From Promethearchaeota archaeon (GTDB taxonomy: Archaea; Asgardarchaeota; Lokiarchaeia; Sigyniarchaeales; SOKP01), in assembly GCA_029838195.1 (NCBI GenBank), contig JALGVJ010000001.1, positions 160,001 to 224,000 of the forward strand: 64,000 nucleotides of DNA. Reading direction: 5' to 3'. Positions 34,514-42,992 of the stretch are shown in pieces; the stretch's first letter is position 1; every line of letters begins with the position of its first letter. A model generated the notes under the pieces. It was not told where the DNA came from. It made no database searches and saw nothing but the letters and a program-made list of their open reading frames with translations. Made by a program: the position numbers and the translations under genes.

Positions 34514-36001
34514 TTATTTAGTAGCTTTCAACTCTTTTAATATTATTCCAAGAGTAATAATGAAAACGGCCATGGTCGATATAATCCAAATCAATTTATA
34601 GGATTCCAAGCGTATGGAGATGATGGGCGTTTCTAATTCGTAAAATTCATGGGGGGCATTTGTCTTAACCCACGTCACTCCTAAGCACCATAATTCGCAG
34701 AATCTCTCTACTGAATCAATCGTGTATACCATGACGGGAAAATCTTGTTGATAAAAAATTCGATATTCCTCATTCGTGTAGGCGTCTCCTGTATTGATGT
34801 ATTCATATCCCGTTAATACATCCATGGCATCTTTATACATGAGCATGTTCATTATTTTTTCGTTTTTAGTTGGAATCATTATCTTACTTAGATTAATTCC
34901 TGAACGAAGGGTAGTGTCCAAAATGATTTCAAAATACTCGTCGTGATAAGGATGGTCGTTGGAGGGAGATTTCATATCAAAATCGAGATAAATATCGTGA
35001 TTTTTCGTAAATTTCAAAACTTCTGCCAAAGTGGGTATTTTTACACCCCTATATGATTCGGCTTGTTCGGGAGATATGATACCAGCGGCAATGACACCGA
35101 AAGGATCTTTATCCACGAACCAAGAACCTGCATCTAATTGCTTGAGTTCCGAAATGGTGAAATTCTCAGCAGGTTCACTAACTCTATCGGGAAAAACATC
35201 CCGAATATTTGTTGTTCTCGTAAGAGTATCATCGTGCATCAAAAAGGGAACGCCATCCTTGCTGATTTGAATATCCACTTCCCAACCCACGATACCGAAT
35301 TGAAGGGCTACTTCCGCCGCGATAAGAGTGTTTTCTGGGCCTAAAGAAGCCCCTCCTCGATGTGCAATTAAATCTGGTTTTGGAGGCAAATCGCCTTCGT
35401 GGACATTTGCCGGGATATAAAAAAAGGGTGTGGCAAAGGCAAATCCATATCCGATTAAAATACACGTGATTATAATAATGCTCTTTCCTTTGGCACGAAT
35501 GATTTTATTCGAGAGATTGGCTTTTAAATGAGGTATATTTTTAAGAAGAGGGTACACCAATAAAATAAGAATTATCTGTATGGTTAGAAAAATAAAAATG
35601 CTATAAAATTCAAAATATTGAGGAATTAATCGAGAATAGCTTCCTAACTCATCAAGGAGAAAAGAGATGAGAATATTAAAAATTAACATCAAGACGAAAG
35701 GAATGAGCTTATACATCCTTGAAAGGATGAGTTCATTTCCCTTTAGTAATTTCTTGAAACTAAAGATTAAAAATATTAAGGAATAGAGCAACGGTATCGT
35801 GAAGAGAAAATATAAAAATAAGATTAGATTAAAATTAAAACCCCACCAATCAGAGACCGTTGTGTTGATTTCTCCCCAATAAGGTCTTAAAATCCATAAA
35901 AATAACAAAAATACGCCAAAATTAATCACACAAGCAAGATAAATGATAATCCATTTTTTTCCTTTTTTATTTTTTAATTTTTCAATCAGCACGATAAACA
36001 C
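34514..36001 (-). CDS. Six-TM glycerophosphodiester phosphodiesterase, GDE2/GDE3 (GDPD5/GDPD2)-like
   Basis: 5 N-terminal TM + GDPD (AHRG, PENT, EVD, GVPFLMHD..L.RTTN) + 1 C-terminal TM; true start possibly GTG 35992 after GAGGTG. Confidence 0.85.
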   Translation of the reverse strand: MFIVLIEKLKNKKGKKWIIIYLACVINFGVFLLFLWILRPYWGEINTTVSDWWGFNFNLILFLYFLFTIPLLYSLIFLIFSFKKLLKGNELILSRMYKLIPFVLMLIFNILISFLLDELGSYSRLIPQYFEFYSIFIFLTIQIILILLVYPLLKNIPHLKANLSNKIIRAKGKSIIIITCILIGYGFAFATPFFYIPANVHEGDLPPKPDLIAHRGGASLGPENTLIAAEVALQFGIVGWEVDIQISKDGVPFLMHDDTLTRTTNIRDVFPDRVSEPAENFTISELKQLDAGSWFVDKDPFGVIAAGIISPEQAESYRGVKIPTLAEVLKFTKNHDIYLDFDMKSPSNDHPYHDEYFEIILDTTLRSGINLSKIMIPTKNEKIMNMLMYKDAMDVLTGYEYINTGDAYTNEEYRIFYQQDFPVMVYTIDSVERFCELWCLGVTWVKTNAPHEFYELETPIISIRLESYKLIWIISTMAVFIITLGIILKELKATK

Positions 36002-36026
36002 CTCTATTTTAATTCATGCGTGTTTT

Positions 36027-38072
36027 TTAATTAAATTTTGTAATGACGGCACAATGATCCGAAGCTATAGAACAATAAACGTGACTCGATTTTGCGTTCA
36101 TGTCAGGGGAACATAGAATATAATCGATTCTTTTTCTCGGGATAAAATTCTCATCAAAATGCCCGGTATAGCCCGCATTGCGTGCAGTATCTATAAAATT
36201 CATGGGTGAAGCTTTAATTAATTGATATTCCTCTGAGGTGGGTTCAAAGTTAAAATCTCCTAACCAGATCAGTTTGTTTTTATCTTTTTCTTGCTCGATC
36301 ACGGAAAGGATATAAGGAACTTGCACCAATCGATCTTGATGGTTCGTAGAGAGATGCGTAATGAATAATGTCCAGATTTCATTGCCGATTATGATTTTTG
36401 CTTTTATCATGGATCTAGGCTCTGTAGATTCTTTAGCTTGGGGGAGATGAATGATCTCAGCGGAACTGATGGGATATTTACTCAATAATGCATTACCATA
36501 ATGCTTGTAAAATGTATAACCATAAAAATAATACATGTCAAGATGATGAGCGAAATAGGAGGTTAAATCAACAAAAGATGTTTTCAAGGCTCCTAAATCT
36601 ACTTCATTCAATCCAAGAATGTCCGGATCGTTTTGTTTGATTTCTTCAGCAATTCTTTCCGGATCAAACACATCATCCACTCCAATTGCATTGTGGATGT
36701 TCCATGTCATTACAATTGGGTGCTCTCTTGGTGTGGATTCCGGAATCCTTTGAATGAGAAGACTCCCAAAAGAACCAATTAAGATAATAAAAATTATCAC
36801 GTATAAAACTTTAATGGGCATTTTCCAGTTCCAATTCAATAATTTTCGATTTAAATTTACCCGTAAATTCTTTCCCTCCATTAGGAAAATGAGGAAAGTC
36901 CCAATTAGCGAAAGGATGAATATATTATTTATCAAGAGAGATAGATATTCATACCACAAGAATTGGACTTGTAAAATGATGAAAAAGAAATTCGTAAAGA
37001 AAAAAATGACCAATCCATGATATAACTTTCTTCTATTCTGAAAAGAATAAAAAATAAAACAGTAGAAAAAGTAAATCACGAGCGAAAAAATATTAACAAT
37101 CTCCAAAATCGTTAAATAAAAGGTCGATACTCCAGGAATTGGCTCATTTTCTAAAATAAAAATCGCTAATAGATTTAAAATAAAAGATGCCCCTATAAAT
37201 GTGAATATTAGCTTTTTTAGAAACGATTGGGACTTAGTATTCATTATTTCATGAATAACATAGCTCCCTATAAATATCACGGCCGTAATGAGGAGAATAT
37301 AATATGTAAATCCATAAGAAATCCAATTTAATTTACCATTCGGAAGCAGATTGTTATAACTACGATCCAACACGTCATATGCCGAAATAGCCATGGGATT
37401 AAAAACCCAAGTTAAAATGAGCAGAAATAAAATTCCGAAAATAATGAAATGAACTAGGGAGATTTCTTGCCCTTTCCTTTCTTCCTTCTCAATGCTCTCC
37501 ATCCCTCGCTCTAGATCTTCTAATTTCTTAGGCGAAAACATGCTCCAATTCATGTACAATAAAAAACCTGAGAAAATAATAATTGGCATGATTTTTATGG
37601 AATCGAACGTCAAACTTAAAGATGCGTTTGCCATTAAAAAAACTAATTGAATACTCGCACCCACGCATCCTCCAAAAAGTAATGTTGAAAAGCCTCCCCC
37701 ATTCGCTCCCAATTCCATCAAATACATTAATTCAATGATGACTAATACAGAACTAAAAAATAAGATAAAATTGAAAATCATGAGTAAGGAAGAAATCATG
37801 AGAAATTGGACCACAATTCGAGAAATTACTACAAGATATATCAAAACATGGATTTTTAATCGAAAATTAAAAAAATTTTTGTAAAAAATCACCAGTTCCA
37901 AGATGATGCTAATAACTATAATAATAATCGTGGGTAAAATCGTGCCGATTCTACTTAAATTCATGAAAACATGTGCATTCGTATTTACCATGATATTGCT
38001 AAACGATTCCATGATGAAATAGAAAAGAATCGCTTGAAATAATAAAATCCGCACTTTTTTTTCCACGATCAT
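36027..38072 (-). CDS. Polytopic membrane protein with C-terminal EEP (exonuclease/endonuclease/phosphatase) domain, CWH43/PGAP2IP-like architecture
   Basis: ~12-13 TM then TWNIH, GLNEVD, YGNALLSKYPI, ITHLS, LGDFN, IDYI, SDH. Confidence 0.8.
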   Translation of the reverse strand: MIVEKKVRILLFQAILFYFIMESFSNIMVNTNAHVFMNLSRIGTILPTIIIIVISIILELVIFYKNFFNFRLKIHVLIYLVVISRIVVQFLMISSLLMIFNFILFFSSVLVIIELMYLMELGANGGGFSTLLFGGCVGASIQLVFLMANASLSLTFDSIKIMPIIIFSGFLLYMNWSMFSPKKLEDLERGMESIEKEERKGQEISLVHFIIFGILFLLILTWVFNPMAISAYDVLDRSYNNLLPNGKLNWISYGFTYYILLITAVIFIGSYVIHEIMNTKSQSFLKKLIFTFIGASFILNLLAIFILENEPIPGVSTFYLTILEIVNIFSLVIYFFYCFIFYSFQNRRKLYHGLVIFFFTNFFFIILQVQFLWYEYLSLLINNIFILSLIGTFLIFLMEGKNLRVNLNRKLLNWNWKMPIKVLYVIIFIILIGSFGSLLIQRIPESTPREHPIVMTWNIHNAIGVDDVFDPERIAEEIKQNDPDILGLNEVDLGALKTSFVDLTSYFAHHLDMYYFYGYTFYKHYGNALLSKYPISSAEIIHLPQAKESTEPRSMIKAKIIIGNEIWTLFITHLSTNHQDRLVQVPYILSVIEQEKDKNKLIWLGDFNFEPTSEEYQLIKASPMNFIDTARNAGYTGHFDENFIPRKRIDYILCSPDMNAKSSHVYCSIASDHCAVITKFN

Positions 38073-38273: not shown

Positions 38274-38846
38274 ATGATAAAAGTCGTTTTATTTAACGGA
38301 AGCCCAAGAGCTAAAGGAAATACCTTTCAAGCTCTGGAAATCGTACGCAAGGAATTAGAAGCAGAAGGTATTGAATGTGAATACATTTGGCTTGGAAAAG
38401 AACCATTATTGCCCTGTAAGGCTTGTTTTAGATGTGCAGGAAAAAAGAAATGTAGCCAAGAAGATGACAAGTTGAATGAATACGTGAATAAAATAATAGG
38501 AGCGGATGGAATAATTATCGGAAGCCCTACTTATTTTGCCAATGTGTCGTCTACCGTGAAGGCATTTATTGACCGCGCAGGTATGGTTTCCAAAATGAAT
38601 GGAGATCTTTATAAATACAAAGTAGGTGCTGCTGTTGTCGCCGTACGTCGCCAAGGGGCTACCCATGTTTTCTCTAGCATTAATTTTTTCTTCCTAATTG
38701 CCCAAATGGTCGTGGTAGGATCTTCCTATTGGAATTTGGGAATAGGACTTGCGCCGGGAGATATTCAAAAAGATAAGGAAGGTATTGAGACTTTTAAGAA
38801 TCTGGGAGTGAACATGGCATACGTGTTGAAAAAATTGAAGAGTTAA
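38274..38846 (+). CDS. Iron-sulfur flavoprotein (Isf, NADPH-dependent FMN reductase family), copy 1
   Basis: GSPR..GNT, CKACFRCAGKKKC, GSPTYF, KAFIDR, RRQG. Confidence 0.93.
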   Translation: MIKVVLFNGSPRAKGNTFQALEIVRKELEAEGIECEYIWLGKEPLLPCKACFRCAGKKKCSQEDDKLNEYVNKIIGADGIIIGSPTYFANVSSTVKAFIDRAGMVSKMNGDLYKYKVGAAVVAVRRQGATHVFSSINFFFLIAQMVVVGSSYWNLGIGLAPGDIQKDKEGIETFKNLGVNMAYVLKKLKS

Positions 38847-38878
38847 ATCAAACATCCGCTCTTTCCATTTCTATCTAT

Positions 38879-38898
38879 TTTTTTCCACGTGGAAAAAA
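38879..38898. promoter_or_regulatory. Perfect 20-bp palindrome TTTTTTCCACGTGGAAAAAA (operator or terminator)
   Basis: Between the two Isf paralogs; same CACGTG core and T/A flanks as 38195-38212. Confidence 0.4.
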
Positions 38899-39023
38899 CC
38901 AAACATTCATTATCTTTTCTTTCCTATCATGTTTATCGGGAAATAGAACTTTATCTTTTCTTGAATTTAATTCTATAATTTATTAGAAAAGTTCTATAAA
39001 AATGAAAAGAAAATATTAATATA

Positions 39024-39599
39024 ATGGCTCTAAAAGTAATCCTTTTTAATGGAAGCTCGAGAAAAGAGGGAAATACCTATTATTGTTTAAAAATCGTGAG
39101 TGACGAATTAGAAGCAGAAGGAATCGAAACGGAGCTTATTTGGTTAGGAGAACAGCCAATTCTTCCTTGTAAGGCGTGTTATAATTGTAAAGGTAAAAAA
39201 AAATGTATTCAAGATGATGACAAGTTAAATGAATACATTAAGAAGATTTTACAAGCTGATGGGGTAATTATTGGAAGTCCGACTTATTTCGCTGATGTTT
39301 CATCTACCGTAAAAGCTTTCATCGACCGAGCAGGATTAGTCTCGAGAATGAATGGAGATCTTTATAAACATAAGGTTGGGGCAGCTGTAATTGCCGTCAG
39401 AAGAGCGGGGGCATTGCATGCTTTTTCTTCTATTAATTTTTTCTTTTTAGTGGCGCAAATGATCGTCGTGGGCTCGTCATACTGGAATTTAGGTATTGGA
39501 AGGAAACCAGGCGAAGTATTGAATGATCAAGAGGGCGTGGACACCTTTAGGACTCTTGGAAAGAATTTTAGTCGAGTTCTCAAGAAATTAAATTCATAA
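39024..39599 (+). CDS. Iron-sulfur flavoprotein (Isf), copy 2
   Basis: CKACYNCKGKKKC, GSPTYF; close tandem paralog of 38274-38846. Confidence 0.93.
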   Translation: MALKVILFNGSSRKEGNTYYCLKIVSDELEAEGIETELIWLGEQPILPCKACYNCKGKKKCIQDDDKLNEYIKKILQADGVIIGSPTYFADVSSTVKAFIDRAGLVSRMNGDLYKHKVGAAVIAVRRAGALHAFSSINFFFLVAQMIVVGSSYWNLGIGRKPGEVLNDQEGVDTFRTLGKNFSRVLKKLNS

Positions 39600-40107: not shown

Positions 40108-41355
40108 CTAACTTTTTGACTTAGAATAGAGGATGTCTAATTCTTTTTTAATTTGTTGAGCGATGGCTTTTGCTAAAAGAGGTGGAACTGCATTCCCAAT
40201 TTGTTTTAAGATAGAACTTTTTGTTCCCTTGAAAATAAAAGCATCATCAAAGGATTGGAGGGCTGCTAATTCGCGAGGCGTACATGTACGATCGAATTTA
40301 TAATGAACAAATACACCTCCATGGTTTTCTTTTACGGTTTTAGCCGGTTTAGTCGGGTCAAGCCTGCGCCAAGCATCACTATAATTTTTATAAACAGTTT
40401 CTCCAATAGGCGTTTCATGTAATTTTTGAATAAATTTCTTCGAATGTTTCGTGAATACATGGCTTAATTTTACATTTTCTGGCCACGTTTCATACTTTTT
40501 TAGAACATCTCCTGCAGTTTTCCAAGAATTTGGCGGAATTGAAGATTTCTTGGAAAAAGGAGCTGAATCGCAATCCTCCAAGCCCCTGGGCGGAGAACTT
40601 TCATGATGGGTTGGAGCTGGAAAGTGTATCAGCGTATTTTTATGTCGGGTCCCCAAGAATATTATTCTTTCTCTGGTTTGCGGCACGCCATAATCCGCAG
40701 CATTCAATACTTTCCATTCGACTTTATACTTGATTTCTTTTATTTTTGACAAAATGATATTTAAAAGGGGCATGAGACGTTTATCAATTTCTTGCTTGAG
40801 CTCCTTTACTTGCTTCCTTAAAGAGAAATATTCTTGTTCTTCTGCCGGATCCAATCTTCTTTGGGCTCGATATCTCTTCAAATCTTTAAATCGTTGAAGT
40901 TGTTGACAGTGGATTTTAAATTGTTGTAATTTTGGCCGTGACAGCTTCGGATCCACGTGTTTCATGTGGAGTAAACCTTTAACATTTTCCATGACGAAAA
41001 AATCAGGCTGCAAATGAGCAATAATGTCAAGAAAATCGACGTATAATCGTCCACGAGGATCATCGGGATTTCTATTACCCGAAATCGAATAAGCTTGACA
41101 AGGGGGTCCACCAATTATTACGTGAATCTTTTTATTTTTAACCCGATCGTATAATTCTTGCTTGATTTCAGGTAAGGTGATGTCTCCTTCAATTAATTGA
41201 GTAGTAACATGATTATATTTATAGGTTTCGATAGCAGGCTTCCAAAATTCATTGGCAGCAACAATATCAAAACCTGCCGCTAAAAATCCTTGACTAAACC
41301 CTCCACATCCCGCAAATAAATCGATTACATTATATTTGGTTTCAGAATGGATTAT
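40108..41355 (-). CDS. dcm: DNA (cytosine-5)-methyltransferase, full length; no ATG/GTG/TTG upstream of motif I
   Basis: Frame of ORF 40108-41013 stays open to 41358 and adds VIDLFAGCGGF (motif I), GDI and GGPPCQAYS (motif IV); ENV, QTRER, RELAALQSF, QIGNAVPP follow; candidate start ATA 41355 or ATC 41352. Confidence 0.88.
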   Translation of the reverse strand: MIHSETKYNVIDLFAGCGGFSQGFLAAGFDIVAANEFWKPAIETYKYNHVTTQLIEGDITLPEIKQELYDRVKNKKIHVIIGGPPCQAYSISGNRNPDDPRGRLYVDFLDIIAHLQPDFFVMENVKGLLHMKHVDPKLSRPKLQQFKIHCQQLQRFKDLKRYRAQRRLDPAEEQEYFSLRKQVKELKQEIDKRLMPLLNIILSKIKEIKYKVEWKVLNAADYGVPQTRERIIFLGTRHKNTLIHFPAPTHHESSPPRGLEDCDSAPFSKKSSIPPNSWKTAGDVLKKYETWPENVKLSHVFTKHSKKFIQKLHETPIGETVYKNYSDAWRRLDPTKPAKTVKENHGGVFVHYKFDRTCTPRELAALQSFDDAFIFKGTKSSILKQIGNAVPPLLAKAIAQQIKKELDILYSKSKS

Positions 41356-41392
41356 TCTTCACCCAATTTTTCTCATGAAATTATTATTGGCA

Positions 41393-42052
41393 TTATTTTA
41401 GCACTAAAGTATTTGCATGGTTACAAATTTCGATTAATGGGCATTCCTCACAATGCGGATTTTTAGGAGTACACATGAGTGCTGCAAAATCTAAAAGTGC
41501 TAAATTAAACTCCTTATAGTGTTCTTTAGGTATTAAATGTTCCATGAATTCATTAAGTTTTTTATCCCGAGAAGGTGCTTTTTTTACGGGAAATGAAAAC
41601 ACTCTTTTTATCACGCGTCCCACGTTTGCATCGATAATGGGCACCGGTTCATGAAATGCAAAACAACGGAGGGCATTCGCTATGTATTCTCCAACGCCAG
41701 GCAACTTCATTAGTTCTTTTTTCGTCTTCGGGATCGTTCCTCCTTGTTCTAAAATAAACTTGACCGTTTTTAATAAGTCTCTCGCACGCCTATTGAATAA
41801 TCCTAAGGGCTGTAGGATGTTGGCTAATTGTTCTTGGCTCAATCGATGGAGGCTTTCCAGATCCGGATATTTCTTGATGAATTCAGGAAAGATTTTTTCC
41901 ACTTGATTGGCATTCGTTTTTTGTAACATCAATTCGGCAATTAAAAATTGAAAAGGCGTGAGCTGGTTCTCCCTCCAATAGAAACTACGCTTGTTTTCCT
42001 CGAACCATTGCAGGAGTAAATTAATGAAAAGCTCCTTCTTTTTCTGCTCCAT
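41393..42052 (-). CDS. HhH-GPD [4Fe-4S] DNA glycosylase, MIG-type T:G mismatch glycosylase
   Basis: R.F.WR, AELMLQKT, LGL...RA, LPGVGEY, IDANV, FNLALLDF, C-x6-C-x2-C-x5-C; no MutY C-terminal domain; adjacent to dcm. Confidence 0.8.
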   Translation of the reverse strand: MEQKKKELFINLLLQWFEENKRSFYWRENQLTPFQFLIAELMLQKTNANQVEKIFPEFIKKYPDLESLHRLSQEQLANILQPLGLFNRRARDLLKTVKFILEQGGTIPKTKKELMKLPGVGEYIANALRCFAFHEPVPIIDANVGRVIKRVFSFPVKKAPSRDKKLNEFMEHLIPKEHYKEFNLALLDFAALMCTPKNPHCEECPLIEICNHANTLVLK

Positions 42053-42080
42053 TAAGAATTTTCCCTCTCATGTTAAATAT

Positions 42081-42992
42081 TCATGAATTTACCACTAAAA
42101 TTTCATTAATTTCGCCTCTTTTCGTCCCATCACTATTTATAGCACGCTTTGCTTTTAAAATAATGATTTTATAGTCCTCATATAGCTTTAAAATGAAATC
42201 AGTATAGGAATTGCTTAACATGAGCTTGCAACCCCTCTCATCTAACCTCTCAAAAACTTTCTTAAGCTTGAGCTGATCTTCTATACCAAAATCATGCCTT
42301 GTATAACTCGTAAAATTAGCCGATTCCGAAATGGGAGCATAGGGAGGATCAAAATATACGAAATCATCCTTCTTTGCCAATTCTAAACATGTTTCAAAAC
42401 TCCCGTGAATAAGCTCGACATTCCTTAAAGCCTCATAAACCGCCCATAAATTCTTCTCATCGCAATAATTTGGATTTTTATATCGTCCAAAAGGAACGTT
42501 AAATTCTCCCTTACGATTCACCCGATATAATCCATTATAACAGGTTCTATTAAGAAAAATCGTTCTTGACGCCCGTTCCACCGGGGATAACGCCTTGAAG
42601 GCCTCCGGATTCCGATCCAAATTTCGAATCATGTAGTAATAATCCCGCTCGTTTTTATGCTTTTTCAAGGAACGGATTAATTCCTTCACGTTCTCTTGAA
42701 TTACTTGATATACATTAATTAACTCTTCATTAATATCAATTAAGATCGCCTTTATGGGCATGAGATAAAAAAATATTGCACCCCCGCCCAAAAACGGTTC
42801 TATATACCTGTTAAACTTTCTTGGAAAATATGGTGCCATCTGAGAAATGATTTGCCTCTTACCGCCCGCCCATTTCAAAAAAGGTCTCGGCACATCTACT
42901 ATTCTCTTTTCCCTTTCATTCTTTCTCCGAATCATGTTCTTTACATGATCAATATCCGCTTCCATAAACCGCAATAATGAATTATCAAACAT
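42081..42992 (-). CDS. dam: Dam-family (D12) DNA adenine methyltransferase
   Basis: FLKWAGGK, EPFLGGG, YNGLYRVNRKGEFNVPFG, DPPY, LSNS. Confidence 0.92.
   Translation of the reverse strand: MFDNSLLRFMEADIDHVKNMIRRKNEREKRIVDVPRPFLKWAGGKRQIISQMAPYFPRKFNRYIEPFLGGGAIFFYLMPIKAILIDINEELINVYQVIQENVKELIRSLKKHKNERDYYYMIRNLDRNPEAFKALSPVERASRTIFLNRTCYNGLYRVNRKGEFNVPFGRYKNPNYCDEKNLWAVYEALRNVELIHGSFETCLELAKKDDFVYFDPPYAPISESANFTSYTRHDFGIEDQLKLKKVFERLDERGCKLMLSNSYTDFILKLYEDYKIIILKAKRAINSDGTKRGEINEILVVNS

Follow-up and report, generated by a model that had tools for sequence, protein, structure and literature searches.

Two neighbouring Lokiarchaeial genes related to eukaryotic GPI-anchor enzymes: probably separate surface phosphodiesterases, not a conserved two-component system

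Introduction

Do two adjacent archaeal genes, each related to a eukaryotic enzyme of glycosylphosphatidylinositol (GPI) anchors, work in a single pathway? The question is raised by a stretch of 64,000 nucleotides, here called the window, from a Promethearchaeota (Lokiarchaeial) genome of 4.5 Mb and 96.6% completeness (genome G000; contig JALGVJ010000001.1, positions 160,001 to 224,000). On its minus strand lies a gene for a polytopic phosphodiesterase of the endonuclease/exonuclease/phosphatase (EEP) type, protein P0001, followed downstream by a gene for a membrane-bound glycerophosphodiester phosphodiesterase (GDPD), protein P0002. P0001 resembles PGAP2IP and its fungal relative Cwh43, and P0002 resembles GDE2 and GDE3, which have six transmembrane (TM) helices; both Cwh43 (PMC6686924) and GDE2/GDE3 (PMC7033719, PMC5576486) act on GPI anchors. 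Were the two genes to form a system, they would open a way to study how GPI-anchor processing arose from prokaryotes, and an earlier note on this DNA had proposed just such a linked pathway.

The answer that emerges is narrower in its value. We consider, with a probability of roughly 60%, that P0001 and P0002 are two separate surface phosphodiesterases, brought side by side by a genus-level rearrangement and probably co-transcribed, and not a conserved two-component system. What the earlier note had observed in the sequence stood, including two co-oriented genes 25 bp apart and an Asgard-type genome (the nearest homologues bear Promethearchaeota names, in agreement with the phylum of the genome), and so did the homology of the two proteins to the eukaryotic enzymes. 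What did not stand was the claim of a linked system, the adjacency of the genes not being conserved.

Conservation of the gene pair

The distribution of the two genes was followed in a family sample of 135 genomes, with a threshold of E <= 1e-100 for an orthologue of the EEP protein. Such an orthologue is present in 24 of these genomes and the GDPD in 30, while 10 genomes carry both. The genes adjoin in only two of those 10, the genome of the window and genome G162, which belong to one genus (g1) and whose proteins are 59-65% identical. In the Asgard phylum (400 genomes), the GDPD is found in 62 genomes, and it lies beside an EEP gene in the same two members of genus g1 only. Moreover, no six-TM GDPD was found at 79 EEP loci from other genomes, searched with flanks of up to 10 kb and including eleven Loki orthologues and several from Chloroflexota, nor in five bacterial genomes that encode an EEP protein of the P0001 architecture. 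On long contigs, the genes that surround an EEP orthologue are unrelated, and the next-closest GDPD (59% identical) sits between a DEAD helicase gene and a lactamase-B-like gene, with a giant prenyltransferase-repeat gene beyond. One further apparent adjacency, across two contig ends of genome G164, was rejected: the final 170 bp on the upstream side of the GDPD encode the end of another open reading frame (ORF), and there is no overlap between the contig ends.

P0001 and P0002 do not form a conserved two-gene system or operon, and because their adjacency is confined to one genus, the juxtaposition is most likely a recent, genus-level event. The earlier note had called the genes a two-gene unit and had held in advance that an unconserved pairing would speak against this; outside genus g1, the pairing was indeed not found in the genomes covered.

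Some of the evidence weighs against treating the two enzymes as separate. The spacing of 25-34 bp, with no terminator in between, has been kept in two species of 62-65% identity, and this suggests real co-expression in the genus. The two families also co-occur in 10 genomes where about 5 would be expected if they were independent, which can be read as a hint only, since related genomes are not independent of one another. Finally, both families share an unusual distribution over Asgard archaea, Chloroflexota and eukaryotes, and a common substrate class could explain this.

Perhaps the two proteins do serve one pathway acting on an inositol-based or glycolipid anchor, with the PGAP2IP-like enzyme remodelling its lipid part and the anchored molecule being shed by the GDE-like enzyme, as a forerunner of eukaryotic GPI metabolism. 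Such a pathway would fit the whole-length homology of both proteins to GPI-anchor enzymes (see below), as well as the tight spacing and co-orientation of the genes in two species. It is difficult to reconcile with a pair that is confined to one genus, with the fact that most genomes carry one gene without the other, and with the occurrence of the same architectures in bacteria that have no GPI.

Search for GPI-anchor genes

A pathway of this kind might be expected to leave other traces in the genome, and the earlier note had proposed a search for genes resembling PIG-A, PIG-L, PIG-K and GPAA1. Pfam models were compared with a six-frame translation of the genome, with control genomes searched alongside. 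The PIG-A N-terminal domain, Peptidase_C13 (PIG-K), Gaa1, Mannosyl_trans (PIG-M) and PIG-U found no match in the 96.6%-complete genome, a weak negative given that the Gaa1, PIG-M and PIG-U models were silent in all control genomes too. Eight genes of the PIG-L/LmbE family are present, but these matches belong to a generic family that is also found in the Escherichia coli and Bacillus subtilis controls. The model for GWT1, the PIG-W inositol acyltransferase, reached 27.9 bits, below its cut-off of 29.6, at positions 16025-16687 of contig C78 (minus strand; a 355-amino-acid ORF), and matched no control genome.

These results count against the anchor pathway. In its favour, the genome has two genes for inositol-1-phosphate synthase, which makes inositol lipids plausible substrates, and a published analysis reports much of the GPI pathway to have an Asgard affinity (PMC12872458). 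Enzymes of the P0001 and P0002 types are not named in that analysis, and in its light an Asgard link of the GPI pathway is less new as a general idea. Taking both sides together, we regard a dedicated anchor pathway as distinctly improbable. Another version of the idea would have the two proteins be Asgard ancestors or relatives of the two GPI-anchor enzymes, joined here in one transcription unit by a shared lipid-linked surface molecule, perhaps an inositol-phosphate-linked glycolipid or a lipid-anchored protein. This we take to be a long shot; if true, GPI-anchor remodelling and shedding would have a counterpart among prokaryotes, and the eukaryotic six-TM GDE family would be linked to the Asgard radiation.

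P0001, a PGAP2IP-like EEP protein

Both proteins had been described as polytopic membrane phosphoesterases with intact catalytic motifs, and TM counts and residue conservation bear this out. In P0001, 13 TM helices precede the EEP domain, as judged by hydropathy and by the helices of an AlphaFold2 (AF2) model (mean predicted local distance difference test, pLDDT, 79.8; predicted TM-score, pTM, 0.82). Residues 455-673 match PF03372 with 83 bits and PF23226, the model for the C-terminal nuclease-like domain of PGAP2IP, with 61.3 bits against a cut-off of 27. Among 35 homologues, the catalytic residues N458, E490, N608, D650, D672 and H673 are invariant, and D606 is conserved in at least 90%.

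How far does the likeness to PGAP2IP extend beyond the catalytic domain? When the AF2 model was compared with the cluster representatives of the ESM-Atlas, it matched a chordate PGAP2-interacting protein cluster, one that carries PF23022, PF23021 and PF23226, with a TM-score of 0.76/0.74 over 620 of 681 residues. A Chloroflexota cluster gave a whole-length match of 0.80/0.83 over 629 residues, and the language-model neighbours of P0001 agree with both structural matches. Judged by its predicted structure, P0001 is PGAP2IP-like across its whole architecture, as the CWH43-like reading of the earlier note had it, and is unlike an ordinary soluble bacterial EEP protein.

Comparison with human PGAP2IP (CWH43) and with the C-terminal part of fungal Cwh43 shows the same order of parts: P0001, with 681 residues against about 699, has two six-helix membrane domains and then an EEP domain of the PF23226 subtype in which the EEP residues are kept. 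The differences are of several kinds. Even with a threshold of E <= 10, the models for the PGAP2IP membrane domains, PF23022 and PF23021, do not match the sequence of P0001 or those of 11 relatives, whereas by predicted structure the superposition on PGAP2IP runs over the whole length. Yeast Cwh43 has a Frag1/PGAP2-like N-terminal domain, but P0001 gives no match to it (PF10277) in a full Pfam scan at E <= 0.1, and its AF2 model begins directly with the first six-helix bundle. The host of P0001, moreover, has no detectable GPI core machinery. A search with a profile built from 12 diverse aligned sequences returned Loki orthologues only and did not recover eukaryotic PGAP2IP or Cwh43.

The EEP side of the finding is already known in outline. 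Fossa et al. (2023) placed Cwh43p and PGAP2IP in an EEP subfamily that also holds an uncharacterised "Asgard/Chloroflexus group" of different size and domain organisation (PMC10704324). P0001 fits that group as a large multi-domain EEP protein that occurs in Asgard archaea and Chloroflexota and clusters with Cwh43/PGAP2IP; the published account gives the group no architecture, structure or function, and our structural models suggest that it shares the full PGAP2IP architecture. The same subfamily includes N-acetylglucosamine (GlcNAc) phosphodiesterases, whose characterised members, those of the Clostridia group, are small, secreted and specific for GlcNAc-6-phosphocholine and GlcNAc-6-phosphoethanolamine (PMC10704324). 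The P0001 architecture is not Asgard-specific: Chloroflexota, Anaerolineae, Dehalococcoidia, Humimicrobiia and an actinomycete encode proteins of 644-672 residues that combine 9-13 TM helices with an EEP domain. In sharing the PGAP2IP architecture, the family of P0001 is a tractable prokaryotic stand-in for an enzyme whose chemistry is not yet clear in yeast and humans.

Two other EEP proteins of the same genome are of note. The first, on contig C9 (L007:1185-2006, plus strand), is a soluble protein of 273 residues that has an extension at its N-terminus but lacks a multi-TM domain; because it scores 64 bits against PF23226, as high as the multi-TM proteins, that model is not diagnostic of the PGAP2IP architecture. 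The second, on contig C92 (L006:150-2213, minus strand), is another multi-TM EEP protein, of 687 residues and 29% identical to P0001 over the last TM helix and the EEP domain only; its match to the first PGAP2IP membrane-domain model is at chance level (E 0.099). Full-length EEP proteins of about 670-710 residues that are likewise 25-28% identical to P0001 occur in several Asgard classes, and the C92 type may be the older of the two Asgard multi-TM EEP forms. A 689-aa ORF that adjoins the C92 gene proved to be unrelated to this paralogue.

P0002, a six-TM GDPD

P0002 has five TM helices, a GDPD domain and one further TM helix, the catalytic domain being inserted between TM5 and TM6 (hydropathy and an AF2 model with a pLDDT of 93.3), and most of its top homologues have the same number of TM helices. 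PF03009 matches residues 214-387 with 89 bits, and the catalytic residues H214, R215, E241, D243 and H256 are invariant or nearly so among 47 homologues.

When 1.8 billion representatives were searched exhaustively with phmmer, P0002 had 145 hits below 1e-30. In phmmer and BLAST alignments, animal proteins named GDPD5-like or GDPD2 in their source align over the full length, from the first TM helices through the GDPD domain to TM6, with E values of 1e-40 to 1e-51 and 27-32% identity; in one example, residues 9-473 of P0002 align with residues 16-492 of Polypterus GDPD2 (29% identity, E 4e-52). Short bacterial GDPDs rank below these animal proteins, at 1e-36 or weaker, and align in the N-terminal part of the catalytic region only.

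The phylogeny agrees with the alignments. In a maximum-likelihood tree of 60 sequences (LG+C20+F+G4) with the short GDPDs as outgroup, the six-TM proteins, P0002 among them, are split from the short GDPDs with support of 100/100. On this evidence P0002 is classed as a GDPD of the six-TM GDE2/3/6 type, apart from the soluble GDPDs, and the earlier reading of it as a GDE2/GDE3-like homologue, not an ordinary soluble GlpQ, is upheld. P0002 shares with GDE2/GDPD5, GDE3/GDPD2 and GDE6/GDPD4 the order of 5 TM helices, GDPD domain and 1 TM helix, an end-to-end alignment and the H-R, E-D and H catalytic residues. It differs in lacking the cytoplasmic extensions of about 30-100 residues that the animal proteins have at both termini, and its substrate must differ in an organism without known GPI anchors. 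The soluble bacterial GDPDs, such as GlpQ/UgpQ and the lysophosphatidylglycerol phospholipase D (lysoPG-PLD) of Staphylococcus aureus, have the same catalytic fold and metal-binding residues and provide the best solved-structure matches of P0002; they have no membrane domain and align to the catalytic domain only (to its first half by sequence, and over about 270-300 columns by structure).

Where do the eukaryotic enzymes arise within the six-TM clade? Asgard lineages form a basal grade, with P0002 in a Loki clade. In the best tree the eukaryotic six-TM GDEs group not with this Loki clade but with a bacterial and metagenomic clade that includes two Chloroflexota genomes (support 100/96). The alternative topology, with Asgard and eukaryotic sequences together and the bacterial clade excluded, is worse by 6.8 log-likelihood units and is not rejected (approximately unbiased test, p = 0.23; IQ-TREE, LG+F+G4), so that the bacterial clade as nearest relative of eukaryotic GDE2/3/6 is not decisive. 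In the tree, the eukaryotic six-TM GDEs emerge from an Asgard-dominated radiation. The eukaryotes in the tree are animals, the ichthyosporean Chromosphaera perkinsii and the amoebozoan Mastigamoeba balamuthi (P0229, P0260), the last two on long branches; since homologues exist in Chromosphaera and Mastigamoeba, the eukaryotic family is not restricted to animals.

A family best known from animals thus reaches Asgard archaea, a few Chloroflexota, an ichthyosporean and an amoebozoan. Its distribution is patchy, the 62 of 400 Asgard genomes belonging to 21 of 85 genera, and three of 401 sampled Chloroflexota carrying a member. A search of the available literature for archaeal relatives of GDPD5 found no paper, and the Asgard six-TM GDE family with its tree is the fresher and more original point when set beside the EEP protein. 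Some members carry the automatic JGI name "glycerophosphoinositol inositolphosphodiesterase", which is the activity of GDE3, an annotation by similarity only. Tandem duplicates of the six-TM GDPD gene occur in two other Loki genomes (G268:C42:26528-29705 and G255:C45:177-3019).

Proposed roles of the two enzymes

On which side of the membrane would the enzymes act? The charge patterns reported earlier are present in both proteins: the N-terminus of P0002, ahead of TM1, has 4 K/R in 14 residues, and the loop ahead of the last TM helix of P0001 (residues 401-413) has 4 K/R and no acidic residue. Applying the positive-inside rule to this charge distribution, we infer that both catalytic domains face outside.

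Our preferred explanation, two separate surface phosphodiesterases, can then be drawn as follows. A genus-level rearrangement would have put the two genes side by side. TM13 of P0001 would present a Mg-dependent EEP domain at the membrane's outer face, an arrangement shared with PGAP2IP and with the C-terminal half of Cwh43, and the GDPD barrel of P0002 would be held on the same face between TM5 and TM6, as in GDE2/3/6. Each enzyme would act on a phosphodiester bond of a substrate that is embedded in the membrane or bound to the surface, the enzyme's membrane domain positioning the catalytic site at the lipid-water interface. Candidate substrates are the polar head groups of archaeal phospholipids, for instance of inositol- or glycerol-phosphate lipids, along with lyso-lipids and phosphodiester-linked decorations of surface glycans. 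The idea of such substrates is supported by the characterised members of the EEP subgroup of P0001, which are sugar-phosphodiester hydrolases (PMC10704324).

A more mundane role would be the scavenging of nutrients in sediment, with the GDPD splitting external glycerophosphodiesters of decaying lipids into glycerol phosphate and an alcohol, and the EEP protein splitting other external phosphoesters or nucleic acids, for a supply of phosphate or carbon. Indeed, among solved structures the catalytic domains come closest to scavenging enzymes of the GlpQ type and to generic EEP hydrolases: in Foldseek searches the GDPD domain of P0002 matches GlpQ, lysoPG-PLD and other GDPD structures, and the EEP domain of P0001 matches EEP enzymes only in the PDB (4ruw, TDP2 and neutral sphingomyelinase), where no structure covers the whole architecture of either protein. 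Sugar-degrading GH32 and GH57 genes downstream in the window would also suit a scavenging life. Yet GDPDs and EEPs of the scavenging type are normally soluble or singly anchored, and this genome has an EEP protein of that kind (the 273-residue one described above), while the retention of 6 and 13 TM helices in different phyla and also in eukaryotes speaks for a substrate that is embedded in the membrane. Considering also that no transporter or pho-type genes adjoin the pair in the window, we think scavenging rather unlikely as the function of these proteins.

The locus and its neighbours

The features of the two genes are collected in Table 1. The start of P0002 deserves comment. The GTG start that was called directly abuts a GAGG, while another GTG at 35992, 9 nt downstream, is preceded by GAGGTG at Shine-Dalgarno distance and is for that reason the more plausible start; the product would then have 492 residues and the gap between the genes would be 34 bp. 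No terminator-like site was found between the two genes on the minus strand, and we infer from the arrangement that they are probably co-transcribed in this genus.

Table 1. Position of the two genes and their predicted domains in the window
Feature	Residues or length	Position	Strand	Evidence
P0001 gene, PGAP2IP-like polytopic EEP phosphodiesterase	681 aa	36027..38072	-	ORF with ATG start; Pfam; AF2; whole-length structural match
P0001 TM region, two six-helix bundles and linker helix TM13	1-441	36750..38072	-	Hydropathy; AF2 helices 4-178, 206-401, 417-441; region covered by PGAP2IP structural alignment
P0001 EEP catalytic domain, predicted extracytoplasmic	453-681	36030..36716	-	Pfam; conserved residues; Foldseek
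Intergenic spacer, P0002 downstream of P0001	25 bp	36002..36026	-	Read from sequence
P0002 gene, GDE2/3/6-type six-TM GDPD	495 aa	34514..36001	-	ORF with GTG start; Pfam; AF2; full-length alignment; six-TM clade
P0002 TM1-TM5	1-196	35414..36001	-	Hydropathy; AF2 helices 15-194
P0002 GDPD TIM-barrel, predicted extracytoplasmic	about 205-460	34622..35389	-	Pfam; invariant residues; Foldseek
P0002 TM6	467-492	34526..34603	-	Hydropathy; AF2 helix 465-494

The neighbours of the pair in the window are unrelated to lipid anchors. They comprise FMN reductases, PCMT, GH32, GH57 and a trio of DNA methyltransferase and glycosylase genes, and they are syntenic with genome G162. The FMN reductases (190 and 191 residues) are tandem paralogues at 38274-39599, divergently upstream of the EEP gene, where the sister species has one copy. 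The trio, at 40108-42992, consists of a D12 adenine methyltransferase, an HhH-GPD glycosylase and a C5 cytosine methyltransferase in a row, and is syntenic in the sister species (L005:1-2164).

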